DNA from: a virus | Lineage: Duplodnaviria; Caudoviricetes | Direction: 5' to 3' (one strand) | Virus record (IMG/VR): IMGVR_UViG_3300011008_000999 | DNA length: 64,000 nt | Shown: in pieces, positions 12,058 through 49,214 of the stretch | How positions within the stretch are numbered: position 1 is the stretch's first letter | Layout of the letters: every line of letters begins with the position of its first letter | Position numbers and translations under genes: made by a program | The notes under the pieces: generated by a model | What the model was told of the DNA's origin: nothing | The model's input: the letters and a program-made list of their open reading frames with translations, nothing else | Databases searched by the model: none

Positions 12058-13635
12058 TTATTTCTTCCATTCAAATTTTAATGAACCACTACCCCAAATT
12101 ACTGGATAATTCTTAAGCTTACTATATAACTTAGGGTTTCTTGCAACTACATTATCTCTAGATATTACATACCATTTATTTGGACCAGTATCTCCAATTA
12201 GCTCCATACCTAAAGCTAAATAAGACTTACCATCAAACTTATTAAAGTCACAATAACTGAATACTTTTGATGGAGTATAATCAGTGACAAAATGTTTAAA
12301 TAACTTACTTACACCACCTATGACTATATTATTAGAACCTGGACAACCACGAATGATTTCCCATTCATTATCGTTTTTAAGGTTTCTATTATATCTAGTT
12401 TTACTAAATGACATAAGTTGAACTAATTCATTTTTGTAGAATAATCCATACGTAACTTGAGCATTTCTATGACCTTGTAAATGCGTAGCTTCATTAAATG
12501 GTTTAGCATCTTGATTAGATATTAGCCTAACTTCACACTGACGAGCATATATCTTAGATACTGAACCTAATGATATATTCAGTAACTGCTTAATCTTATC
12601 AGGATAATTAGACCATTCCCATTCATAAATATGAATCAATCTTATTCCTCTATCTCTACAAGCTTTAGACTTATCTATATGATAAGTTTTATTCTTATGT
12701 TCTGCATCATGCCAGAATGTTCCATTACACTCTATAGCAATATGTTTATCTGGAATATATACGTCTAATTCATAAGGCTTTAGAATATCTCTAGTATTAG
12801 TAATAATCTTACCAGAATAGATAGATTTAATGTAGTCAATAACTTCAGTTTCAAATAAAGAACTTTGATAATGATTAATCTCACTATATTTTTGGATATT
12901 GATAAGCTCTGAATTCTTTATAAAGGCATTATTTCCACAATAAATAGGATGTACGTTAATCTTATCAATAACAAAAGTCCAACCAAAACCATATTTCTGA
13001 ATAACTTCATCTCTACTAATACAATCATTTTGTATCATAAATTCTTGTAATCTAGACTGTTTTAATTGTTTTGTATGTTGTTTTACTATATCAGACTGCT
13101 GAGGACGTTCTGTACCATATTTAGCTAAACTAGTAGCTTTACTTTTGTCCTTAACATCATCACTTTGCCAAGAATACTCTACTCCATAACGTTCTAGATT
13201 AGTTTGTCTAATCTTTTCTTTTATTTGTTCCGATGCATATACATTTTCAACACCATACTTCTCGACGTTTGTTTTAGCTCTTTTAGTCTTAGCTTCTTTT
13301 GATTGACTATTTACTTTTGCTTTTTCTTTAGTCTCCTCAAGATTAAGATTGCATTTTACTCCATATTTTTCAATAGAAGTTTGTTTAATCTTTTCTCGGA
13401 CCACTGGATCTAAGTTAGCACACTTAGAAGAACAATATAATCTATAACCAGTTAGTATAGTATCAAATGCAGTTTCTTTTCCACAAATCTTACACTTACC
13501 TTCAGAATCAGTTTTAAGATACTTATCATAATAATCTTTACTTGCTAACTGATGTTTTCTCTTAAGATGACTACTTATTCCTTTAGGTCCGCATTCTTGA
13601 CCACATATTTTACACTTAAACATATTTATCTCCAA
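12058..13635 (-). CDS. homing endonuclease (Zn fingers, KYGV repeats, Vsr-like nuclease, Hef-like C-terminus)
   Basis: CKICG..HLKRKH; EGKCKICG..YCSSKC; TNLERYGVE repeats; PYELDVYIPDKHIAIECNGTFWH. Confidence 0.8.
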   Translation of the reverse strand: MEINMFKCKICGQECGPKGISSHLKRKHQLASKDYYDKYLKTDSEGKCKICGKETAFDTILTGYRLYCSSKCANLDPVVREKIKQTSIEKYGVKCNLNLEETKEKAKVNSQSKEAKTKRAKTNVEKYGVENVYASEQIKEKIRQTNLERYGVEYSWQSDDVKDKSKATSLAKYGTERPQQSDIVKQHTKQLKQSRLQEFMIQNDCISRDEVIQKYGFGWTFVIDKINVHPIYCGNNAFIKNSELINIQKYSEINHYQSSLFETEVIDYIKSIYSGKIITNTRDILKPYELDVYIPDKHIAIECNGTFWHDAEHKNKTYHIDKSKACRDRGIRLIHIYEWEWSNYPDKIKQLLNISLGSVSKIYARQCEVRLISNQDAKPFNEATHLQGHRNAQVTYGLFYKNELVQLMSFSKTRYNRNLKNDNEWEIIRGCPGSNNIVIGGVSKLFKHFVTDYTPSKVFSYCDFNKFDGKSYLALGMELIGDTGPNKWYVISRDNVVARNPKLYSKLKNYPVIWGSGSLKFEWKK

Positions 13636-13664: not shown

Positions 13665-14060
13665 TTAATCTTTTACTTCGACTAAAGTGTCGATTGACAA
13701 TGGGTTATTTTGAATAATACCAGGCAAAACGGAAGCATCATTACGCTGAGTACAAAGTATACAATGTATTCCAGCAGATCTTCCAAGCTGAGTAATACTT
13801 TGTATGTTACTAATAATCTCGTCTTTTAAAGCGTCTTCAGCTTTACCTTCAGTAGTTTTAATACCAGACTTACCAGTTAACTCTGCAATCTCATCTACTA
13901 CAATCAATAGACGAGGCATTTCATCTGTATAACATTTATCTACACAGTTCTTATTGACTGGAATCCAATGTTCTCCATCAAGTTGAATTTCAAGTTCTGG
14001 CAATTGAACTTCTACTTTTGCTTTAGCATTTTTACCAGTATCATTTAACATCCATCCCAT
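13665..14060 (-). CDS. FtsK-like ATPase fragment (Walker B part) ending in a 12-aa split-intein IntN (13668-13703)
   Basis: PRLLIVVDEIAEL; QLGRSAGIHCILCTQR; ends IIQNN|PLSIDTLVEVKD, an intein block A pattern with Pro1. Confidence 0.85.
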   Translation of the reverse strand: MGWMLNDTGKNAKAKVEVQLPELEIQLDGEHWIPVNKNCVDKCYTDEMPRLLIVVDEIAELTGKSGIKTTEGKAEDALKDEIISNIQSITQLGRSAGIHCILCTQRNDASVLPGIIQNNPLSIDTLVEVKD

Positions 14061-14063
14061 TGT

Positions 14064-14957
14064 TTAATTCACCTCCAATTTACCTGCACCATATATAGTA
14101 TATCCATTATCATATATCTTAGTTGGTTCAGGAATAACATCTAATAAACTATTTTTATTAAAGTCATTTTTAGGATATTTGTCTATACCTAAAATCAATT
14201 CTTTTAATAAATGTTTTTGTTTATCAATATCTTCAAATTCATAAATATGTATTAGACGTATACCTTTATCTCGACATAATAATGACTTATGTAAATGATA
14301 ATCTTTAGGCGTTCCAGCATTTACAGAATGATACCATTTACCATTATACTCTATGGCTAATTTCAAATCTGGCAAATATATGTCTAATTCGAATGGATAA
14401 ATAATCTTACGTCTATTTTCTAGTATTATTCCTTTATAGAACGTTTTTATATATTCTACAAGTTCTTTTTCTGCATGTGAAGTGCTACAATTAGGCCTTT
14501 TTACTGATACATAGTCTATAATTTTTTGTATTTCATTGATAGGCACAAATTTAGTTTGACTATCCATATAAATAAAATTAACTATATTACTTGAATACCA
14601 ACCATGTCCATATTGTACTCTTAAATCATTCGCAAATATACAATTATGGTCAAGCTCAAATTGTTTTATTTTACTATTTCTAGTATCTTTCCATGCATTA
14701 GGATTAAAATGATCCTTGTCTGAATACATACATTCTGGCGAGCAATATTTTCCAATATATCCTATAGAGATAGTTTTGAACTTGGTATCTTTTCCACATA
14801 CTGTACATTTTCCTTCATTAGGTTTTCTTAAATATTTATCATAATACTCTTTAGCTGAAAGTTTATGTTCAATAAGATGATTACCTAATACTTTACATGT
14901 TTTACTACATATTATACAAGTTTGTGATTGATCTCCATTACGATCGAACCATCCCAT
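14064..14957 (-). CDS. homing endonuclease (Zn finger plus Vsr-like nuclease)
   Basis: CIIC..HLIEH; EGKCTVCG..YCSPEC; PFELDIYLPDLKLAIEYNGKWYH. Confidence 0.8.
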   Translation of the reverse strand: MGWFDRNGDQSQTCIICSKTCKVLGNHLIEHKLSAKEYYDKYLRKPNEGKCTVCGKDTKFKTISIGYIGKYCSPECMYSDKDHFNPNAWKDTRNSKIKQFELDHNCIFANDLRVQYGHGWYSSNIVNFIYMDSQTKFVPINEIQKIIDYVSVKRPNCSTSHAEKELVEYIKTFYKGIILENRRKIIYPFELDIYLPDLKLAIEYNGKWYHSVNAGTPKDYHLHKSLLCRDKGIRLIHIYEFEDIDKQKHLLKELILGIDKYPKNDFNKNSLLDVIPEPTKIYDNGYTIYGAGKLEVN

Positions 14958-24686: not shown

Positions 24687-25003
24687 TTCCTCTCTATATA
24701 TTTTCTAGTAGTAAAGTCTATACAATCACGAACTATTCTATTATAGAGTAATTCATCATAAGATTTAAAAGTACTCCATTTATATGGATGCTCATTAAAC
24801 TTAGCTTTACCTGTGATATCATAGTAGTCTTTATCTATTTTGCAGATAAAATGATTTTCAATTGGCAAGTAATATATCTCACCATTAAAGTGTTCTTTTA
24901 AAATCACTGCGAAATAATAACAATTACCATGCAGAAATAGGTCTTCAACCTCACTTGCATGGCAAAACTTAAACTTCTTTATGAATTTTTCAACATTATC
25001 CAT
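24683..25003 (-). CDS. hypothetical protein
   Basis: ORF with RBS; GNCYYFA..H motif. Confidence 0.65.
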   Translation of the reverse strand: MDNVEKFIKKFKFCHASEVEDLFLHGNCYYFAVILKEHFNGEIYYLPIENHFICKIDKDYYDITGKAKFNEHPYKWSTFKSYDELLYNRIVRDCIDFTTRKYIERK

Positions 25004-25011
25004 ACTATCCT

Positions 25012-25452
25012 CTACTGTACACTATCTAACAGTTGAGTAGGAGATAAGAACATTAAACAAGGAAAATTTCGTACAATACCAAATATGATTAAGGTGGATA
25101 AGAATATTCCAATAAACCATATAGTGAATTTTGACCATTTACCTCTGAATACATAGAATATATTTTGATATAAGTAAACCAATATAACAATTGGCCACAT
25201 AATAAATACATAAGGATTCCATCTAAATGCTTGATATAAGTCATGATCGTAAAGTACACTTTCTATAAGTCGAGTTGTACCACAGCCAGGACAATTAACT
25301 TCAAAATGCTGATGGATAGGACACTGGATCCTATAACCTATATGCCATTCTATAATTACAAAAGCAATACATATACAAACTATAAAGATATTTATAAGTA
25401 AGACCAGCTGGATTCTATCCACACTGGTCTTCTTGGAGGAGGGTCTATTCAT
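25012..25452 (-). CDS. DUF2752-like membrane protein
   Basis: CPI..CPGCGTTR..AFRWNP with TM helices. Confidence 0.8.
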   Translation of the reverse strand: MNRPSSKKTSVDRIQLVLLINIFIVCICIAFVIIEWHIGYRIQCPIHQHFEVNCPGCGTTRLIESVLYDHDLYQAFRWNPYVFIMWPIVILVYLYQNIFYVFRGKWSKFTIWFIGIFLSTLIIFGIVRNFPCLMFLSPTQLLDSVQ

Positions 25453-25463
25453 TTGATAATTCC

Positions 25464-25766
25464 TTAATTATTTGCGTACATTCCAGCACCTGCAAGAATA
25501 ATGTTGTACATATACTGCAGAAGTGCGATGCTGTCACCTCTGAAATTCTGGATCTTAGCGATTATCTTCTTCTGATAAGCAGTTGCCTCAACATAAGTAT
25601 TCACAAAGACAATCAGCTGAGTTTTCTTTTCTGCCATTGAAATAGTTTCATCAAGGCAAATCTGATCGAAATTCTTATGATATTCCTCAAGAGTAAAGGC
25701 AATTGAACCTTCAACCTTAGTAAAATCCACTGCGTTGTTCTTTTTCTCGTTAATTTTCTTTGCCAT
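25464..25766 (-). CDS. hypothetical protein
   Basis: First gene after promoter; GGAGG RBS before MAKK. Confidence 0.7.
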   Translation of the reverse strand: MAKKINEKKNNAVDFTKVEGSIAFTLEEYHKNFDQICLDETISMAEKKTQLIVFVNTYVEATAYQKKIIAKIQNFRGDSIALLQYMYNIILAGAGMYANN

Positions 25767-25800
25767 GTAAAATACCTCCACGTATTTTTATTATGATATA

Positions 25801-25834
25801 ATTATAACATGACAAAGTCAACTTGTAAATAGTT
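25801..25834 (-). promoter_or_regulatory. sigma70-type promoter
   Basis: AACTATTTACA-N17-TATAAT with extended -10 TG. Confidence 0.75.
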
Positions 25835-25891
25835 TTTAGAAAATTTTTTCAAAAATTTTAGTTACTTTGATATAATAAATATACACATTTA

Positions 25892-26353
25892 TTATACCTC
25901 CTCAAATTTCTGCTCTTTACGATTATCGATCTCAGCATGCTCACCACTAAAGTCAATAACTGTAGTAGAGTTCATGTTATCGAGATCAATTTCTCCTTCA
26001 AGTTTTACGTCATCAGCAACCTGTGACGTCATTCCACTATAACCTAAATCATCAAGACCACGTTGTTTGAAATATGTCTCTGTAATCCATTTCTGTTGTT
26101 CAAAATAATATTGAACACGAGAAATCTGACCTTGCATCTTAGTTATACCTGCACCTTTATGAGTACCATCTACAGTAGTACCAAGTGTCGAACCAAGAGC
26201 CATCATTGATGCAGTCTGTTCCAAACGTCCAGCAACGATCTAAATACGAGCAGCACAATTATGGGTAAAGATCATTTTCTTATCCATTGTTGTTCCACTC
26301 TTATTTAGATCACCTCCTTTACGTTTAAAAACTTTTTCTAAAATATTTAACAT
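25892..26353 (-). CDS. split-intein IntC (ends THN at 26258) fused to the C-terminal FtsK-like ATPase fragment; in-frame TAG at 26240-26242
   Basis: RBS plus MLNILEKVFKRKGGDLNKSGTTMDKKMIFTHN|CAARI*IVAGRLEQTASMMALG..KGAG..RVQYYF, in frame with ORF 25892-26224. Confidence 0.8.
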
Positions 26354-26363
26354 AATTTTCCTC

Positions 26364-27227
26364 CTATAATAATTTTCCTGCTCCATATACATGATAATTT
26401 CTTTCACTAGTATGTATTAAAACAGGCTTTGGAATCTTTCCAAAATTGTTTTTATTGAAATCCTTTTCATTATATAAGTCAATTCCATTTAATAAAGAAT
26501 TTAACTTATAAATCTGTATATTAAAATCTTCAAATTCATATATGTGTATAAGTCGTATATCTTTATTTCTGCACATAATTGATTTTCGTAAATGATAATC
26601 TTTAGCTATTCCAGCTTCTAATGAATGATACCAGGTTCCATTATACTCTACTGCAAGCGTTAATTCTGGAAAATATAAATCTAATTCTAATGGTGATATT
26701 ACTGTTTTTGTATTTTCAAATACCTTTCCATTATAATTGATATATTTTAGAATATTCTTTTCCTTATGACTTCTTCCACTTATAGGTGTATATTTGAATG
26801 ACTTAATAATATCGAGATATTTATTATCTACATATTGGTACATCTTTGATACACGTATAATTGGAATATCAAGTCTTTGCCAATCACGTCCATATAAATC
26901 AATTAACTTTACAATATGCGTACAATTATTTGATTTTTCAAATTCATCTATTATTTGATGCTTAGTTTTCCATTGATTTAAATGATCCACTTTACTAAAA
27001 TTGCTTTGGGCAATAACTTGACACCTTTTACAACAATACGTATTATATCCTCTATCCATTCCATAGAAGTTAGTTGGTCTATTACATACGAGACATATTC
27101 CTTCATTTGATTGTTTCATGTATTTATCATAATACGAATGTTTATCTAAATTATGATAACTAGTAATATGTTTACTTAATGGTTGAATATTTTTATATTC
27201 TTTACCACATATATTACATTTTACCAT
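26364..27227 (-). CDS. homing endonuclease (Zn finger plus Vsr-like nuclease)
   Basis: CNICGK..HITSYH; EGICLVC..YCCKRC; PLELDLYFPELTLAVEYNGTWYH. Confidence 0.8.
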   Translation of the reverse strand: MVKCNICGKEYKNIQPLSKHITSYHNLDKHSYYDKYMKQSNEGICLVCNRPTNFYGMDRGYNTYCCKRCQVIAQSNFSKVDHLNQWKTKHQIIDEFEKSNNCTHIVKLIDLYGRDWQRLDIPIIRVSKMYQYVDNKYLDIIKSFKYTPISGRSHKEKNILKYINYNGKVFENTKTVISPLELDLYFPELTLAVEYNGTWYHSLEAGIAKDYHLRKSIMCRNKDIRLIHIYEFEDFNIQIYKLNSLLNGIDLYNEKDFNKNNFGKIPKPVLIHTSERNYHVYGAGKLL

Positions 27228-27303
27228 ACAATCGCTTCCTTAGTGTAAAAACCATATTTTTAGACGTGGTCTGCTTAGGTTTTATTCTTTTTAATAGTCT
27301 CAT
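27214..27303 (-). pseudogene. 29-aa stub resembling the IntC N-terminus
   Basis: RBS plus MRLLKRIKPKQTTSKNMVFTLR; compare TTMDKKMIFTHN at 26.3 kb. Confidence 0.5.
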
Positions 27304-27326
27304 AATAATTTCCTCACAATTTCTTT

Positions 27327-27758
27327 TTACTCCTTATTGGTAGGATATTTAACTGCACTATTTCTCTGAAGTCTATCACAGAAATCAAGAAATGCTTCCT
27401 TATCTTCTGGATTAGAGAAAGGAACGGTAAATGTAAGTGTGCCATGTCCTTCAATAGTTCTATCCGGCTCAATCTTAAGTAAGAGCTTACCTGTGTTATC
27501 ATATACACTAAAGTTCTTTGCTTCGGTCTTGTAATTCGGATTGTTAGCATAAACTTCATTATCTTCTAACATGTCAGGTAAGTAATCAGGTAAATTACGA
27601 TTAACTTCTTCCTGAGCCTCTTTCTGAGTCATGCCATCAATTTCTACATTCACAGGAATCTGCTGAAGCTCACCCATAAGTTCAACAACCATTCCATTTG
27701 CAGCATCAGCATTTAATGCAATGTCAATATATTTTGCTAATACTTCTCTTGAATACAT
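27327..27758 (-). CDS. hypothetical protein
   Basis: RBS before MYSRE. Confidence 0.7.
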   Translation of the reverse strand: MYSREVLAKYIDIALNADAANGMVVELMGELQQIPVNVEIDGMTQKEAQEEVNRNLPDYLPDMLEDNEVYANNPNYKTEAKNFSVYDNTGKLLLKIEPDRTIEGHGTLTFTVPFSNPEDKEAFLDFCDRLQRNSAVKYPTNKE

Positions 27759-27779
27759 ACTAAATCCTCCTTTGTGTAA

Positions 27780-27847
27780 TAAAAACAAAGGTAAGTCAAG
27801 CTGACCTACCTTTTATTTTTCGCATCCACTATTATTATTAAATAGCT
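27780..27847 (-). repeat. dispersed promoter-hairpin unit (variant)
   Basis: CTATTTAATAATAATAGTGGATGCGAAAAATAAAAGGTAGGTCAGCTTGACTTACCTTTGTTTTT. Confidence 0.65.
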
Positions 27848-27868
27848 TTTTATGCGATTTAGTTATCT

Positions 27869-28120
27869 TTAATCATCATCTCTACCAATAAAGGTGAGTC
27901 CTTTTACTTCAAATAAACCTACATTTTCAAAGTGAATAGCTTTGTTTTCTGGATCTATTTTAACAATCTTGTCATGAAACATTCTACCTTGAGTGGTAAC
28001 TACATAGCATTTATCTCCAGTAATAAGATCACATCTGCCAACTGTACCAGTAACTACTATTCAAGAAGAGGTAGATAATGACAAATTACCTGATGCATAT
28101 CCACAAAAATATTTGTTCAT
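27869..28120 (-). pseudogene. 83-codon gene with in-frame TGA at 28061-28063
   Basis: GGAGG RBS; MNKYFCGY...*IVVTGTVGRC...; frame continues after the stop. Confidence 0.55.
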
Positions 28121-28129
28121 AATACCTCC

Positions 28130-28656
28130 TTAGTTATACCATCCAGGCTGTTCATACTTTTCTCTCATTTTTGGAAGACATTCTGGACAACATCTACCTG
28201 CAAATGAATATCTTTGCTGCTCTTTATATGGAACTGACTTTCCACATACTGGACAAGTGTCCATAGCTGCTTTAGCTTTACTTACAATATCAGATAAGCT
28301 AGATCCTTCAGGACCAATAAAGTCAGTAAGTTTTTCTGCTATAATTTTTAATTCAGCCTTTAGCTCTCTAGCAGAATATACACGCTTATCTACGCCTAAT
28401 TTCTTTGAACTAATTCTAACGCACAAATTACTATAATCTGCATAATCTGGATAGTCAACAGTAATTTCAATTGATGTTTTGAATATACTATATGTTATTG
28501 TACCACTAAAACATCCCAAGCACCTGGATCATTGTCATAATCTAAATGTCTTAAACTACCTTTACCATCTATATCAACATTAAATGGACCATCTGCACGA
28601 TTTGTAAAATCTACAACATATTTAGCTAGTCTAACTGTAGTATCAAAATTTCCCAT
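28130..28656 (-). pseudogene. frameshifted gene with C-terminal CxxC pairs
   Basis: RBS start MGNFDTT at 28656; one-base shift near 28515 joins it to ORF 28130-28519. Confidence 0.55.
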
Positions 28657-28672
28657 AGGTATTCTCCTTTTA

Positions 28673-29719
28673 TTATTTCTTAGGCTTTACTAAAACCCTA
28701 AAATGATAACATTGTCCATGTCGTCCTGAATCAAGAATGACATGTTCGTTATAACCACCTGCTCCAATAGTTTCAACTTCAGCTTTACCATCTTTACCGA
28801 TAATATAGCCATTGAGATTACCATCATCTGCAATATAAAGATATGTTGCATCAAGAATTTCACCAGTAATCTTAGATACTCTAGTCATAAGATCGATAAG
28901 TTTATTGTTCTTTTCCTGTTCAATCTGTTTATCTAGCCAATCAGGATCAAACTTACGACTTAACCAAGCTTGGAAGAATCCATCTCCGAATTTAGCTTTC
29001 CATTGCTCTTCATTTCTAACATACTTAGGATGCTCATCTGGATCATTCTTATCTCTATAACCAAAATGGACTAAATTGATGTATTCATAATTATTGTTAG
29101 GTTTGAATCCTTCATTAAGAGTGTCCATAATTCTATTGAATCTATCTTCACTCTTCCAGCAGTATTTTTGAATGAATTCTTCTTTATTTTCTTCAACTAG
29201 TCTATTGACTACTTCTACAAGACATTCATAATATAACTTATCACGTGTCTCCTTGTATTCCTGTAAAGCTTCTGGGTATTCTTCTGCTTTTTTAGTATAA
29301 TAACCTATTACTCTAGATTTCCATTCATTCAGGAACTCCTTGATAACTCCAGGGACTGAATCTTGGATATATTGCAACTTAACTTCTTCAAGTCTGAGTT
29401 TTTCTTTCCAATTCTGTACTACCTGTTGTGCATCTTTAAGTTTTCTAAGGTTATCATTTATAGCAGATTCCTTATCTCTAATATCACAAACTGTCCAATA
29501 AATGTCATGATAAAAGTCTTTACCTTGATATTCACGATACCAATCAGGTTTATCACATACATCATCATAAGTTATTCCAAGGTTGTTTTGTTCCATGATC
29601 TTATTGAGAGCCACGACTTTCTTTTCACCTTGAGTCTTATGACGTTCAATAGTCTTTTCGATCTTTGCACATTTTTCTTCAGCAAGTCGAACTTTTTCTT
29701 TTAGCTCATCAATAGTCAT
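28673..29719 (-). CDS. coiled-coil hypothetical protein
   Basis: 348 aa; C-terminal TIGAGGYN..HFRVLVK. Confidence 0.8.
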   Translation of the reverse strand: MTIDELKEKVRLAEEKCAKIEKTIERHKTQGEKKVVALNKIMEQNNLGITYDDVCDKPDWYREYQGKDFYHDIYWTVCDIRDKESAINDNLRKLKDAQQVVQNWKEKLRLEEVKLQYIQDSVPGVIKEFLNEWKSRVIGYYTKKAEEYPEALQEYKETRDKLYYECLVEVVNRLVEENKEEFIQKYCWKSEDRFNRIMDTLNEGFKPNNNYEYINLVHFGYRDKNDPDEHPKYVRNEEQWKAKFGDGFFQAWLSRKFDPDWLDKQIEQEKNNKLIDLMTRVSKITGEILDATYLYIADDGNLNGYIIGKDGKAEVETIGAGGYNEHVILDSGRHGQCYHFRVLVKPKK

Positions 29720-29730
29720 AAGAAAACCTC

Positions 29731-30441
29731 CTATTTATAATACTCAAAATTAGTTACTATAAAAGTATAATCTTTAGTCATTCCAAGTTTATTAGTGTGT
29801 GTGTATTGTGCTAACATAGGAAATTGTTCACTAGGTCTACTATATTCATTTACTTTAAATACTGACTTTTCATTATACACATTACTAACTGCTTGTTTAA
29901 TAGTATTCATGTCAGGATTATATGCGATATGCTCTTCATCAATTCTACCAATCTCTTGCATACTTCTTTGTATAGGTGCAAACATATCACGTACTTGTTC
30001 TTTTACCTTATTTATAGTAGCACTAGTAAGTTCAATTTCTCCACTTTTCTTATCTAAACAAATAAAGCTTGCATTAGACAATTTAATCTGAACAAATATT
30101 TCTACAGTTGCTGTATCAGGTTCAGCTATTACATCAATAATCTCAGGAACTAAACCTTTAGTATGTGACATAATAAAATCTTCTACTGCGTCTTGTCTCC
30201 ATTCTTGTCTTACATGACATGATCCAGTGTGTATTGAAATAGGTGTAGTAATAGAAAGATCTCCAGTATAGGTATGTTTTTCTTTCTTTTCTTGAAGAGC
30301 CTTTTCTTCAGCTTTTTTCTGCGCTTCTACATTCATTCTATATGCCGCATCTCTACCTGCTTCAGTTATTTCAGTACGTCCTCCACCACCAGGACTACCA
30401 CCCATTCGGCTCATAGACCATATAGTAAAATAAGCTCCCAT
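29731..30441 (-). CDS. hypothetical protein
   Basis: 236-aa ORF with RBS. Confidence 0.7.
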   Translation of the reverse strand: MGAYFTIWSMSRMGGSPGGGGRTEITEAGRDAAYRMNVEAQKKAEEKALQEKKEKHTYTGDLSITTPISIHTGSCHVRQEWRQDAVEDFIMSHTKGLVPEIIDVIAEPDTATVEIFVQIKLSNASFICLDKKSGEIELTSATINKVKEQVRDMFAPIQRSMQEIGRIDEEHIAYNPDMNTIKQAVSNVYNEKSVFKVNEYSRPSEQFPMLAQYTHTNKLGMTKDYTFIVTNFEYYK

Positions 30442-30454
30442 AGTAACCTCCTTA

Positions 30455-30527
30455 AAAAGAAAATGACCTACCTCTTTCGAGATAAGTCATTTTTCGCCAT
30501 CCATTCTTTATTATAAATAAATAGCTC
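30455..30527 (-). repeat. dispersed promoter-hairpin unit
   Basis: CTATTTATTTATAATAAGAATGGATGGCGAAAAATGACTTATCTCGAAAGAGGTAGGTCATTTT. Confidence 0.75.
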
Positions 30528-31064
30528 TTAATAACTAATATTATCATATAAGTCGTTGTCATCAAGTTCGTCACCATAGACATGTTCAATTCCAGTGATT
30601 TCTGTCCAACCTTGATTATGAAAAAGTTTTAACAACTCCTCTTTTGTTTTATTTCTAGCTGGACACTCTTCATTCTTAAATGGGAATCCATTATAGTCAA
30701 ATTCAAGTTCAGGACCTTCAGGTGGACAATATCTATCACCAGCATAACCAGGACTAATTACTCTAATATTAGCTCTAACATCTGCTGTAACTGTAATATC
30801 AGTATAATCTATACTTGAAATCTCAAAATCATCAGCATCTTCCATAAGAGAACTAAGAATATCAAATATATCCTCTTCAATGTGATCAATGGAATCGATA
30901 ATCTCATCTATACGCACATCTGGAACATTTTCGGCCCACTTAAGAATAATTCTAATAGTCTGACGACCATGTGAATGATCTGGACCTCTATCGTAATCAT
31001 CATATCTATCCATAGATGAACTATTTGTTTCAAAACAACTGTTTCTAATTTTAAACATGGTCAT
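30528..31064 (-). CDS. FETNSSS-motif family protein
   Basis: N-terminal FKIRNSCFETNSSS. Confidence 0.75.
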   Translation of the reverse strand: MTMFKIRNSCFETNSSSMDRYDDYDRGPDHSHGRQTIRIILKWAENVPDVRIDEIIDSIDHIEEDIFDILSSLMEDADDFEISSIDYTDITVTADVRANIRVISPGYAGDRYCPPEGPELEFDYNGFPFKNEECPARNKTKEELLKLFHNQGWTEITGIEHVYGDELDDNDLYDNISY

Positions 31065-31082
31065 TCCTCCTTATTTATATTT

Positions 31083-31398
31083 TTATATCTCCAATATCTT
31101 ATTCATGTCAATATCTTTTTCATGTTCAATAAATTTTGGATTAATATCATTAAACTGTTTCATAAAGTCAGTTATGTCTTTAGCGTTAATATCTACTAAA
31201 TCCATATTAGTATGATATCCAGTCGTGTTTACTTTCCAAATAATATCTGACATATCTAACTTAAATCTCTCTAAAAAATCTTCTATAGCAAAATCAATAC
31301 CAGGACAAATCATAAATGGACAACGATTACTATGCATAATTAATGATTTTTGCTTCAAATATACAATCAAACACTGGAAATAAATATACAGTTTGCAT
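31083..31398 (-). pseudogene. frameshifted hypothetical gene
   Basis: RBS start MQTVYLFP at 31398 stops near 31330; continuation lies in another frame. Confidence 0.45.
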
Positions 31399-48785: not shown

Positions 48786-49214
48786 TTAATTGTAGAGATA
48801 CTCGTATATCTCCAATGCTGACATTTCTTTTTCTTCACCAGCAATTCTAACTTTAATCTTTTCATCCTTGTCAAATTCTCTACCAGTGATCCAAACTTTT
48901 CCTGTCCAATCAGTAGGCTTGTAGTCTGCCATATCATTCAGACCTATTTTCTGCATCTTCTTATTTCGAGAATACATAACAGATCTACCTATTCTCAAAA
49001 TTTCTGCAGCTTCTTGAACTGAGTTAGCAACTGCAACTACACCATTCATTCCTTTAAAAGGATAAAATTCTGTCTGTTTTATATCAACTAACGCAACTGA
49101 TATTTTATTGTTATGTTCAATTTATTTTAGGCACTAGGCCTAAATACAATGGAATATGACATTCCTCAAAGTAACACTATTGTGCGAAATGAGTCCTCGT
49201 TTAGCTGTCTCCAT
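48786..49214 (-). CDS. 12-aa split-intein IntC fused to FtsK-like ATPase fragment (post-Walker A); 24-nt in-frame stop-containing gap at 49119-49142
   Basis: Strong RBS; METAKRGLISHN|SVTLRNVIFHCI[gap]EHNNKISVALVDIKQTEF..EAAEIL..MYSR, in frame with ORF 48786-49049. Confidence 0.8.

Follow-up and report, generated by a model that had tools for sequence, protein, structure and literature searches.

A candidate 6-nt programmed translational bypass at a stop codon in a split-intein FtsK-like phage gene

A minus-strand gene in the window (the whole 64,000-nt stretch of DNA analysed here) is interrupted by a TAG stop codon shortly after a split-intein junction, and we consider that this is probably a 6-nt programmed translational bypass, or stop-hop, carried on a Vsr-like homing-endonuclease cassette. 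The proposal draws on comparison with related loci, where stop-led inserts recur at the same site together with a covarying RNA helix.

An interrupted split-intein gene

The ORF opens at an ATG (26353-26351, minus strand) with GGAGG 7 nt 5' of it, and reads MLNILEKVFKRKGGDLNKSGTTMDKKMIFTHN|CAARI*IVAGRLEQ.... The locus and its partner pieces, read from sequence and translation, are as follows.

26258-26353, minus strand: leader and intein C-tag (IntC), 32 codons, MLNILEKVFKRKGGDLNKSGTTMDKKMIFTHN, up to the HN|C splice junction (..IFTHN|C)
26243-26245, minus strand: putative take-off codon ATT (Ile), C-extein codon 5
26240-26242, minus strand: stop codon TAG between two Ile codons
26237-26239, minus strand: putative landing codon ATC (Ile), same tRNA-Ile GAU as ATT
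26236-26234, minus strand: putative resume codon GTT, following ATC
25892-26257, minus strand: C-extein (Cys+1 through TAA), C-terminal part of an FtsK-like ATPase, interrupted by the 6-nt gap
26364-27227, minus strand: free-standing homing-endonuclease gene, 287 aa, with a zinc-finger-like N-terminus and the motif ..ELDLYFPELTLAVEYNG.WYH
13665-14060, minus strand: N-extein partner, FtsK-like ATPase from Walker B to TQR, with a 12-residue terminal intein N-tag PLSIDTLVEVKD

After the intein C-tag the codons are CAAR, then ATT-TAG-ATC-GTT, and their coordinates agree with an earlier note on this DNA, which had reported a TAG flanked by Ile codons five codons after THN|C. A tRNA scan found that the phage encodes tRNA-Ile(GAT).

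The N-extein partner matches Pfam FtsK_SpoIIIE (profile positions 167-218 of 221, E 2.5e-4, under the gathering score), carries a tag resembling intein block A and lies 12 kb from the IntC piece, downstream in transcription order. Searches of the C-extein against Pfam and PDB returned no match, and it is called FtsK-like because of the N-piece match and the continuous ..TQR..NN|C.ARI.. motif. The two extein pieces would together form an FtsK-like protein with intein ends at the break, as in a fractured gene. A full intein core precedes THN|C in homologues, and homologues with a fused intein core terminate in ..IFTHN|C. The leader protein sequence is conserved, with mostly synonymous differences, in L001, L008, L009, L010 and L025; as regards a nascent-peptide signal for take-off, it is basic (KVFKRKGG), as are leaders of uninterrupted alleles, and split-intein tags are charged anyway. 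The DNA comes from a giant gut/rumen phage whose genome holds FtsK-like paralogues, and a megablast search of positions 25000-29000 against deposited phages gave no match.

The endonuclease gene lies directly upstream of the IntC gene, its TAG stop overlapping the IntC ribosome-binding site (RBS), and not between the two intein halves as in the fractured genes of Dassa 2009. We describe it as Vsr-like by motif resemblance to the family in PMC2677866, without an HMM match; its zinc-finger Pfam matches are weak. Homologues directly precede the IntC gene in seven insert-bearing loci (L008, L010, L011, L012, L015, L022, L023), and other insert-bearing loci have no adjoining endonuclease.

A second interruption occurs at 49.1 kb, in the window's other IntC-bearing FtsK-like gene.

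49119-49145, minus strand: second site, ATT, 21-nt gap (TAG, TAG, TAA; 7-bp hairpin), ATT
49176-49214, minus strand: other micro IntC tag METAKRGLISHN|S, whose start-codon region pairs with the codons immediately preceding the 49.1-kb take-off codon

In a single frame this gene reads CAT TGT ATT TAG GCC TAG TGC CTA AAA TAA ATT GAA, and its homologue P0121 is uninterrupted there (HCIEHNN, within FHCIEHNN). The likeness between the two sites suggested by the earlier note extends to the whole design: at 49.1 kb a helix with the start region runs up to the take-off ATT, and a stop, a hairpin inside the gap and a second, matching ATT come after it.

Stop-led inserts recur at the same site in relatives

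The comparison set comprised 22 related loci (14 insert-bearing, 8 uninterrupted) and several database proteins. They contain 12 or more distinct inserts, 4 to 38 nt long, at two hot spots 15 nt apart, and the first codon of every insert is a stop (TAG, TAA or TGA).

After CxAR-Ile/Met/Val: ATT TAG ATC (window); ATT TAG GTC; ATT TAGCCTAGC; ATG TAACCACG
After CxAR-Ile/Met/Val: ATT+11 nt+ATT in two versions, TAG-led and TGA-led; ATT TGACGGCCA ATT
After CxAR-Ile/Met/Val: GTA+13 nt+GTA; GTT+12 nt+GTA; ATT+35 nt+ATT
Directly at HN|C: AAT TAGC TGT; AAC TAGGTTTAGC TGT

Take-off codons at the site equivalent to the window's are thus ATT, ATG, GTA and GTT. The version ATT TAG GTC occurs in L001/L007 and in L008, and further versions are shared by L010 and L011, by L017 and L019, and by L005 and L018. 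TAG is kept in L001/L007 and L008, with TAA or TGA at that place in other relatives. Fourteen distinct inserts could be read from DNA (the 12 of the relatives' set, the 49.1-kb gap and that of L028). Half of these (7/14) have a length that is not a multiple of three, and two of the in-frame ones contain two or three stops. Comparing the take-off codon with the one just ahead of the resume point gives an identical pair in 6/14, a synonymous pair in 2/14 and a match at two of three positions in 6/14. The inserts of P0001, P0005, P0007, P0012, P0128 and P0132 were inferred from TAG=Q translations, a reading confirmed for P0013 only (against L010/L011).

Uninterrupted homologues read CAARIVAG or CAARMVCG, and the sequence is IFTHN|CMQRLICGQLG in distant homologues whose intein core is fused; no intact homologue compared has extra residues at the insert site. 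The claim that removing 6 nt restores CAARIVAG is borne out by the uninterrupted L002, P0002, P0006 and P0016 (CAARIVAGRLEQ), and the alignment of orthologues that the earlier note had called for places the relatives' inserts at this point or directly at HN|C. Homologues of the C-extein form 142 protein clusters; about 46 of the 120 listed were called solely from a Met 3' of the site, which fits frequent interruption, and roughly 40-60% of the family is interrupted.

The same inserts were found again in independent assemblies, which indicates that the 6-nt insert is not an assembly artefact. Nor, on this comparison, is it a random lesion: 13 other loci share it or have a parallel to it, it is structured, and the ORF after it is intact. 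That two independent random lesions were unlikely had already been argued in the earlier note from the two window sites.

A long-range helix confined to insert-bearing alleles

The take-off region can pair with the leader of its own gene, as given below from sequence and predicted folds.

26298-26311, minus strand: helix 5' arm GATCTAAATAAGAG
26237-26250, minus strand: helix 3' arm CTCGTATTTAGATC, which holds the take-off codon, stop and landing codon
26219-26330, minus strand: extended 112-nt hairpin enclosing the whole IntC coding region (MFE fold of 26330-26215)
26308-26320, minus strand: Shine-Dalgarno-like 13-mer AAAGGAGGTGATC inside the ORF, codons K-G-G-D-L

The arms CTCGTATTTAGATC (26250-26237) and GATCTAAATAAGAG (26311-26298) are complementary at 13/14 positions. 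This long-range complement, already pointed out in the earlier note, is real, covaries and is restricted to insert-bearing alleles; it forms part of an imperfect inverted repeat of 32 nt (78% complementary), larger than the structure first noted. The hairpin has an MFE of -40.1 kcal/mol against a mean of -19.7 in dinucleotide shuffles (z -6.55; 0/200 shuffles as good).

A helix between the start region and the take-off site was found in 14/14 insert-bearing loci and 0/8 uninterrupted ones. The energy of the duplex between leader and take-off window ranges from -11.2 to -23.7 kcal/mol in the insert-bearing loci (14/14) and from -2.8 to -10.0 in the uninterrupted loci (8/8), and with inserted bases excluded the two classes still separate fully (Mann-Whitney U=0, p about 1e-4). 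The position of the 3' arm tracks the insert site, and alternative registers of the helix are used in L025, L015, L005, L016, L017 and L022. Paired cells make up 83.5% of the helix alignment compared with 31-49% in slid controls. Covariation is seen at the Arg codon, where a switch between CGT and AGA is matched by compensating bases in the 5' arm (three double changes). This covariation, and the confinement of the helix to insert-bearing alleles, point to selection on a translated RNA. In L010, L012 and L025 the helix pairs solely with pre-existing extein codons. In the window-type helix most of the excess stability is due to base pairs between the inserted TAGATC and its exact complement in the leader, GATCTA (z only -0.6 without them). 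A template switch could also yield this pairing and is, given the complementarity, a possible origin of the 6-nt version, one that would not explain the family pattern. The earlier note had itself raised artefact or template switch as objections; the former is answered by the independent assemblies and the latter may hold for the origin of the 6-nt version.

The note had further paired the site with an internal Shine-Dalgarno. The element is present in the ORF at 26320-26308, and its proposed role in recoding is not upheld. The short-leader relatives L002, L014, L016, L017, L020 and L022 carry GGAGGTGA 5-9 nt 5' of the start codon, and the 49.1-kb IntC gene uses this motif too; judged by these, the internal element is an ancestral ribosome-binding site buried by a longer leader. 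Relatives weaken it by synonymous changes while the Gly-Gly-Asp residues are retained. As a start signal it was rejected, no in-frame start codon being near enough for it to serve (the closest ATG in frame is 25 nt off). No Shine-Dalgarno-like element lies in the 6-nt gap just 5' of the landing codon, the sole one being 66 nt upstream.

Stop-codon usage and the downstream sequence

TAG is an ordinary terminator in this genome, ending 25 of 272 long ORFs, and the orthologous gene in L010/L011 itself stops at TAG, at the conserved C-terminus. No suppressor tRNA (anticodon CUA) was present among the 41 RNA genes found, and recoding TAG gave no greater ORF gain than recoding TGA. ORF totals, stop usage and the tRNA scan thus gave no indication that TAG is reassigned (TAG=Gln, code 15-like). 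A genome-wide scan for a sense codon, a stop and a matched codon returned 82 matches, both window sites among them; most were spurious, because its RBS model was too strict for the genome's GAAAGGAAA-type sites. The most promising of its additional matches, in the sigma-factor gene (TTT TAG, hairpin, TTT; genome 29.8 kb), was discarded as a bypass after comparison with L031, which resolved it into a +1 A-run frameshift and a separate CAG-to-TAG change at one conserved Gln codon. Ordinary lesions of this kind exist in the genome.

All 22 loci compared keep the C-extein ORF intact. The 114 codons downstream are intact in every insert-bearing locus, with dN/dS of 0.03-0.35, one nearly identical pair apart. 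We downgraded dN/dS as proof of function after insertion because cassettes have often been exchanged, as seen from the tree and the leader identities. Insert states are interleaved with uninterrupted alleles in the tree, and L015 and L017 are nearly identical downstream but have different cassettes; hence the downstream sequence may be recently invaded functional DNA. L014/L019 are a further cassette-swap pair, and the window and L001 share about 97% leader identity but have a downstream dS of 0.88.

A proposed short bypass and its alternatives

In the mechanism we favour, a ribosome would translate the IntC tag and then the first five extein codons, bringing AUU into the P site and the slowly decoded UAG into the A site. 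The peptidyl-tRNA-Ile would release AUU, the mRNA would slide 6 nt and the tRNA would re-pair at AUC, so that decoding restarts at GUU and gives IntC-CAARIVAGRLE..., able to trans-splice with the FtsK-like N-piece. The hairpin enclosing the IntC codons would re-form behind the ribosome. The final 14-17 bp could pair only once the take-off region exits the ribosome, which most likely favours forward slippage; this pairing may also keep the next ribosomes away from the start region. Most likely, the insert arrived with the Vsr-like endonuclease cassette and shields the invaded allele from re-cutting, as in T4 mobA/gene 60. That ribosomes hop, that the helix helps them and that the insert confers immunity are all inferred here from sequence and predicted structure.

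Readthrough of the TAG by a near-cognate tRNA, or by a host or phage suppressor, would give a product RI-x-I-VAG with two extra residues that is spliced and active. We regard it as unlikely, although the window's site, taken by itself, could also be read in this way. It would suit the in-frame, TAG-led inserts of the window, L001, L008, L010 and L028, and public gene callers did use TAG=Q for P0001, P0005, P0007 and P0013, but the genome yielded no suppressor tRNA and uses TAG to end ordinary ORFs, as does the L010/L011 version of this very gene. The TAG at a conserved Gln codon of the sigma-factor gene might be counted in its favour; that gene is also frameshifted, so its TAG looks like damage or sequencing error. 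The inserted codons include Pro (TAG CCT AGC), in a motif whose length is invariant in all intact homologues. Relatives carry TGA- or TAA-led, multi-stop or frame-breaking inserts at the same site, and with 7/14 frame-breaking inserts and multi-stop in-frame ones neither readthrough nor one reassigned codon can serve the family. Across the family, these frame-breaking and TGA/TAA-led versions make hopping appear a far better explanation than readthrough.

Equally, it is improbable that the allele is simply dead, its stop left by an endonuclease cassette or an inverted-repeat template switch, with only IntC plus five residues made, paralogues sufficing and the downstream ORF conserved through recent invasion. 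Loss of this FtsK-like copy might be tolerated with paralogues present, and such a history would be in keeping with the frequent cassette swapping (L015/L017, L014/L019), the contrast between leader identity and downstream dS for the window and L001, the exact TAGATC/GATCTA complement and the real lesions elsewhere in the genome. Against it, a downstream stop or frameshift occurs in 0/12 distinct insert-bearing alleles, inserts are always stop-led and mostly end in a matching codon, interrupted forms account for roughly 40-60% of the family, and the covarying helix is found only in insert-bearing alleles, even where it pairs solely with pre-existing extein codons. We give very little weight to termination at the TAG followed by restart, in which the helix would put GGAGGTGAT beside TTG 26224 or ATG 26209/26206 and the fragment would join the ATPase unspliced. 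A TTG-started 110-aa ORF does begin at 26224, the Shine-Dalgarno-like element adjoins the 5' arm in every variant, and split phage proteins can assemble non-covalently, as discussed for the T4 gene 39/60 products (bioRxiv 10.1101/2022.08.31.505936). The restarted product would, however, lack the conserved C.ARIVAG strand, matched codons and exact wild-type restoration would be pointless, relatives have no conserved start codon after the insert, and the Shine-Dalgarno-like element is itself partly paired in the window fold. It is scarcely credible that the six bases are cut from the mRNA by the element's own RNA-repair enzymes or are a sequencing artefact: the insert is fully base-paired with no bulge-helix-bulge in the fold, matched codons play no part in RNA cutting, and independent assemblies contain the same inserts. 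We know of no intron of 4-12 nt.

The stop-hop may also belong to something wider. It is quite possible, though we stop short of calling it probable, that a general short-bypass device travels on homing-endonuclease cassettes of uncultured jumbo phages, consisting of a stop-led 4-38-nt gap and a covarying helix (start region with take-off codon) whose refolding behind the ribosome drives the hop, and acting as a gate on trans-splicing. If so, hopping would decide between a full ATPase and an N-half capped with five residues, at 0-5 codons from the split-intein junction. Were the hop inefficient, the product ending at the TAG (IntC and five residues) could still be spliced onto the N-half as a cap, which would be a new control on a split protein. 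The family offers a dozen natural variants of one site (4 to 38 nt, three stops, three take-off amino acids, two positions), each accompanied by its own covarying helix and suited to tests of ribosome release, slide distance and whether mRNA refolding on exit pushes the ribosome forward. It also bears on annotation, as gene callers truncate such genes or read TAG=Gln (P0013), and it would be a candidate third way, next to inteins and introns, for an endonuclease cassette to leave the gene it has invaded usable.

Comparison with known systems

To our knowledge, efficient natural bypassing is firmly established essentially only in T4 gene 60 and its homologues. Hopping at low level across a single stop codon flanked by matched codons is reported for E. 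coli, in work attributed to Weiss et al. 1987 and O'Connor et al. 1989 (refs 29 and 30 of bioRxiv 10.1101/2024.12.09.627546), the former reportedly finding about a percent for un-stimulated 6-nt hops. The geometry is that of the window (sense codon, stop, cognate codon; nine nucleotides for one amino acid), but those hops were seen in reporter constructs with no stimulators, whereas the window site is natural, recurrent in a gene family and accompanied by a covarying helix.

The byp elements of Magnusiomyces mitochondria, as outlined from Lang et al. 2014 via bioRxiv 10.1101/2022.08.31.505936 and 10.1101/2024.12.09.627546, are 27-55 nt long and in those accounts have no endonuclease cassette. 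So described, they are likewise many, short, variable and mobile gaps, with matched codons that include wobble or looser pairs, GC-rich hairpins and AU-rich 3' parts, and the 35-nt L012 gap and the 49.1-kb gap resemble them. They sit in a eukaryotic organelle, and the phage genome here yields only two sites in a crude scan. In Streptomyces phage terminase genes, candidate short coding gaps were proposed from comparative sequence (PMC10732093); they reportedly start at the rare codon UUA, unlike the stop here, and concern another host gene and another phage group.

The arrangement of the genes is close to that in Dassa et al. 2009 (PMC2677866), which covers fractured genes with a split intein and a free-standing Vsr-like or GIY-YIG endonuclease. 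In both, the parts of a broken-up phage gene carry intein ends, and a Vsr-like endonuclease gene stands free beside the IntC piece; here the pieces are 12 kb apart and the intein tags very short. That paper describes no stop-containing extein inserts, and where it brings up bypassing it does so solely as an improbable alternative to splicing.

In gene 60, too, mRNA structure surrounds the take-off site and upstream pairing is possible as the mRNA exits the ribosome, where pairing has been argued to drive forward bypassing (Wills, Parsawar & Atkins, bioRxiv 10.1101/2024.12.09.627546). There, as here, a free-standing endonuclease splits a host gene and adds a new front end (for the MobA cassette, Bonocora et al. 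2011, as cited in Manning & Atkins, bioRxiv 10.1101/2022.08.31.505936), and the gap outlasts the nuclease in relatives; gene 60 relatives that lost MobA exist, and Vsr-type nucleases occur in some gene 60-like cassettes (bioRxiv 10.1101/2022.08.31.505936). The host genes, an FtsK-like ATPase here and a topoisomerase in gene 60 (Toprim region of Topo2L, gene 39/60), are not homologous, and the gaps (6 nt here and 4-38 nt in relatives, versus 50 nt) have no sequence similarity. Unlike gene 60, the gap here contains no Shine-Dalgarno-like element, the take-off codon lies in the 3' arm of a long-range helix with the start region rather than the 5' arm of a local hairpin, and a split intein joins the two halves again, with the gap 0 or 5 codons from the splice junction. 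On this comparison, the resemblance to gene 60 is one of mechanism and architecture rather than of membership by homology.

Stop-led inserts in the split FtsK-like gene

The window comes from a virus record of 331,944 bp that bears terminal repeats; it has a G+C content of 31%, reads normally under code 11 and carries all its genes on the minus strand. On rereading the DNA, everything that the earlier note had stated about the sequence of the main site was correct. The pieces of the split gene and its neighbour are:

26353 (start), minus: IntC ORF, the C-piece of an FtsK-like ATPase gene, preceded by a good ribosome-binding site; reads MLNILEKVFKRKGGDLNKSGTTMDKKMIFTHN, then CAARI, TAG, IVAGRLEQTASMM..., 110 more codons and TAA at 25892
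26245-26237, minus: proposed take-off codon ATT, TAG and proposed landing codon ATC
Ending 10 nt upstream of the IntC ORF, minus: endonuclease gene, 287 aa (ORF/translation)
13665-14060, minus: N-piece partner, covering Walker B to TQR of an FtsK/SpoIIIE-type ATPase, with a 12-residue block-A-like tag at its end

The N-piece matched positions 167-218 of 221 in Pfam PF01580 (E 2.5e-4, under the curated cut-off). Two more zinc-finger/Vsr-like endonuclease genes flank it (window 12058-13635 and 14064-14957, both minus), hence it is boxed in by mobile nuclease genes; the 525-aa one of the two also matches DUF7487 and REase_MTES_1575.

Relatives came from contig scans (viral, metagenome and genome), with 22 usable loci, and from a protein search, with 142 clusters. 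The gene was interrupted in 14 of the 22 loci, and the other eight read HN/CAARIVAG, CAARMVCG or close variants in the DNA (the slash marks the intein junction).

Inserts read from DNA at the main site and in related loci (L numbers), each shown with its flanking codons.
After the CxAR-Ile/Met/Val codon: ATT TAG ATC (window)
After the same codon: ATT TAG GTC (L001/L007, L008)
After the same codon: ATT TAGCCTAGC (L010, L011)
After the same codon: ATG TAACCACG (L009)
After the same codon: ATT TAGGCCTGCGG ATT (L015)
After the same codon: ATT TGACGGCCA ATT (L016)
After the same codon: ATT TGAAAGGGCCG ATT (L025)
After the same codon: GTA, 13 nt, GTA (L005, L018)
After the same codon: GTT, 12 nt with TGA and TAA, GTA (L020)
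After the same codon: ATT, 35 nt with its own hairpin, ATT (L012)
Exactly at HN/C: AAT TAGC TGT (L017, L019)
Exactly at HN/C: AAC TAGGTTTAGC TGT (L022)

Further inserts appeared in database proteins (I-Q-P-T-V, M-Q-V-V, THN-QFQN-C), where Q is TAG translated under code 15. A check on protein P0013 bore this out: its sequence equals the TAG=Q reading of L010/L011 at every residue and continues through the real TAG terminator of their gene. About 46 of the 120 listed protein clusters were called only from a downstream Met. In L016, a TnpB/IS200-605-type ORF (254-1369) precedes the insert-bearing IntC gene by ~1.1 kb. In the C-extein homologues P0241-P0244 (46% identity), ~150 residues of intein core are fused before IFTHN/C, so the same insertion point also occurs with a conventional large IntC, beyond the short tag.

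Hopping and other readings of the stop

Every insert opens with a stop codon that immediately follows a sense codon, with TAG, TAA and TGA all in use. Across both IntC-bearing genes, 14 distinct inserts were read from DNA (12 in the main-site family, the 49.1-kb gap and one in contig L028); in seven the length is not divisible by three, and two in-frame inserts contain two or three stops. The resume point is preceded by a copy of the take-off codon in six inserts, by a synonymous codon in two and by one alike at two of three positions in six, and deleting each insert restores the uninterrupted sequence exactly. Judged from these comparisons, hopping is the best reading, as a single mechanism would fit all variants: at the stop, the peptidyl-tRNA would quit the take-off codon and re-pair a few bases downstream. 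We therefore favour, with some reserve, a programmed 6-nt stop-hop carried by a homing-endonuclease cassette as the probable explanation of the window site.

Readthrough of the TAG is unlikely. Like +1 or -1 frameshifting it fits only part of the variants, and either would put 1-12 added residues in a fixed-length motif; distant homologues with a fused intein core read IFTHN/CMQRLICGQLG, with no extra residues. TAG acts as an ordinary terminator: it closes 25 of 272 long ORFs and also ends the upstream endonuclease gene and the orthologous gene in L010/L011, while none of the 41 RNA genes found by ARAGORN has a CUA anticodon. A dead allele is just as improbable, since the 12 distinct insert-bearing alleles examined have no downstream damage. 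Pairs with the same insert show dN/dS of 0.03-0.09 at dS 0.5-0.9; given the cassette traffic described below, these values may date from before the recipient genes were invaded. Better arguments for function are the undamaged downstream sequence, the designed-looking inserts, a covarying helix found only with inserts and the high share of interrupted forms, both among the loci (14 of 22) and among the protein clusters (about 46 of 120 called only from a downstream Met). Restart downstream of the stop is very improbable, and we give least weight of all to RNA-level removal of the insert or an artefact. The earlier note had called for an ortholog comparison: inserts recur in relatives and independent assemblies share identical ones, which excludes an assembly artefact.

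A helix between the start region and the take-off site

Long-range pairing of two 14-nt arms, proposed in the earlier note, is real but was drawn too small, the arms being part of a 32-nt imperfect inverted repeat. The region 26330-26215 folds into one long hairpin (-40.1 kcal/mol, z -6.55; matched by 0 of 200 dinucleotide shuffles) that encloses the entire IntC coding region and holds ATT, TAG and ATC in its 3' arm. Duplex energy was calculated for the leader, taken from 12 nt ahead of the start to 22 nt short of take-off, paired with a 20-nt segment at the take-off codon. It reached -11.2 to -23.7 kcal/mol in all 14 insert-bearing loci (z -1.8 to -6.9 against shuffles) and -2.8 to -10.0 kcal/mol in all eight uninterrupted loci (z near 0), and this full separation persisted when inserted bases were excluded (Mann-Whitney U=0, p ~1e-4; 12 versus 8 non-redundant loci). 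The 3' arm shifts with the insert site: its end is CxAR-Ile at the first hot spot and ..FTH at the junction one. The 5' arm is invariably found immediately 3' of GGAGGTGAT, which in short-leader genes places it on the start codon itself. Where the Arg codon is AGA in place of CGT (L012, L025, L015), the 5' arm changes to match; in the five same-register sequences 83.5% of cells are paired (31-49% in slid controls), and three double changes are compensatory. Support for the helix is weakest in the window type: without the inserted TAGATC, which pairs with leader GATCTA, its duplex is ordinary (z -0.6). Its full hairpin nonetheless exceeds all the others in strength.

A 13-mer in the IntC ORF, fully complementary to the Bacillus-type 16S 3' end, is present as noted before. 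Its proposed tie to recoding found no support: it lies 66 nt ahead of the take-off codon, is the ribosome-binding site in use in short-leader relatives and the 49.1-kb gene, and is worn down by synonymous changes in L009, L015 and L005, with Gly-Gly-Asp or Gly-Asp retained. No usable start follows it at the window site. We read it as a putative ancestral ribosome-binding site, buried by the longer leader brought with the cassette.

The helix may act in the hop itself. While AUU occupies the P site, the 3' arm would sit in the ribosome and the inner hairpin would already have re-formed behind it, hence the remaining 14-17 bp would form only upon forward movement of the mRNA, promoting forward slippage and impeding return. 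Refolding would also delay following ribosomes, as the start region forms the 5' arm. For T4 gene 60, pairing of the exiting mRNA was raised as a possibility (bioRxiv 10.1101/2022.08.31.505936) and later argued to play such a forward-driving role (bioRxiv 10.1101/2024.12.09.627546).

Cassette exchange

The 287-aa protein has homologues encoded immediately upstream in the window, L008, L010, L011, L012, L015 (broken), L022 and L023. All of these carry an insert except L023, which has a changed extein (RICCG) instead; other insert-bearing loci are without the nuclease. A tree of the downstream ORF has insert states interspersed among uninterrupted alleles. L015, which has the nuclease, a long leader and an 11-nt insert, and L017, which has a short leader and a 4-nt insert at the other hot spot, differ downstream by a dS of only 0.015. 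The window and L001 share a ~97% identical leader at a downstream dS of 0.88. Front end, helix arm and insert hence travel as one cassette. L014 and L019 likewise pair a near-identical downstream extein with wholly different front ends, and both pairs look like snapshots of cassette replacement by recombination. By analogy with T4 mobA/gene 60, in which the insert protects against re-cutting (bioRxiv 10.1101/2022.08.31.505936), we infer that the insert-bearing allele would be immune to it.

The second site and other candidate gaps

The earlier note had proposed a device shared by both IntC-bearing genes of the window, which the second gene bears out:

49.1-kb gene, minus, with its IntC tag at 49176-49214 and the gap plus flanking ATT codons at 49119-49145: METAKRGLISHN/SVTLRNVIFHCI, TAG GCC TAG TGC CTA AAA TAA, ATT GAA.., in a single frame

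Its uninterrupted homologue P0121 reads FHCIEHNN. A 9-bp helix joins the start-codon region (UACAAUGGA) to the codons ending at the take-off AUU, directly followed by a 7-bp gap hairpin, and L012 has an equal two-helix layout. Relatives of this gene carry stop-led inserts at three other codons, I-Q-T-I and R-Q-K-R (proteins P0128, P0132) and ATT TAG CTC (L028:1540-1560, before KQTEF). Several gaps are apparently possible in one short gene. Judged by eye, the start region of L028 has an 8-bp complement in the codons that precede take-off.

A crude genome-wide scan found both window sites again. Its best extra match, a sigma-70-type factor gene (L030:1490-2060 (G000 28301-31343); genome 29.7-30.4 kb, outside the window), was rejected as a bypass, as comparison with orthologue L031 revealed lesions instead: an extra A in an A-run (+1 frame shift after ..EVDKK) and CAG-to-TAG at the conserved Gln of DLIQ(E/Y)GN. 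These could represent a pseudogene, sequencing errors, or transcriptional slippage with suppression; they have the look of ordinary damage or sequencing error and are other in kind than the FtsK inserts.

Also outside the window, an in-frame TAG (genome + strand 24843) separates a 174-codon ORF from a 621-codon UvrD-like helicase frame (..GLSFEDLF, stop, EDSGLLNEEQMAVVN) with no start codon ahead of the LNxxQ motif, possibly a further recoding site or a lesion. An in-frame TGA (+ strand 46704, ~420 nt past the window end) lies between 158- and 114-codon open frames (..PGVNISVL, stop, IVCAGNVFLDK). ARAGORN reported two tRNA-like genes whose anticodon loops have two bases, and a tRNA-Tyr bearing anticodon ATA (genome 150356-150618 and 154719-154792), within a 41-gene tRNA/tmRNA block.

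Comparison with known systems

The literature searched contained no description of coding gaps adjoining intein junctions. T4 gene 60 with MobA is the nearest system in mechanism and architecture, without homology: the host gene differs, the gap here is 6 nt and lacks an in-gap Shine-Dalgarno, and the hairpin topology is different. The window's 6-nt form has the same geometry as the classic low-level stop-hop, and the forms of 35 nt and 24 nt are similar to the byps of yeast mitochondria.
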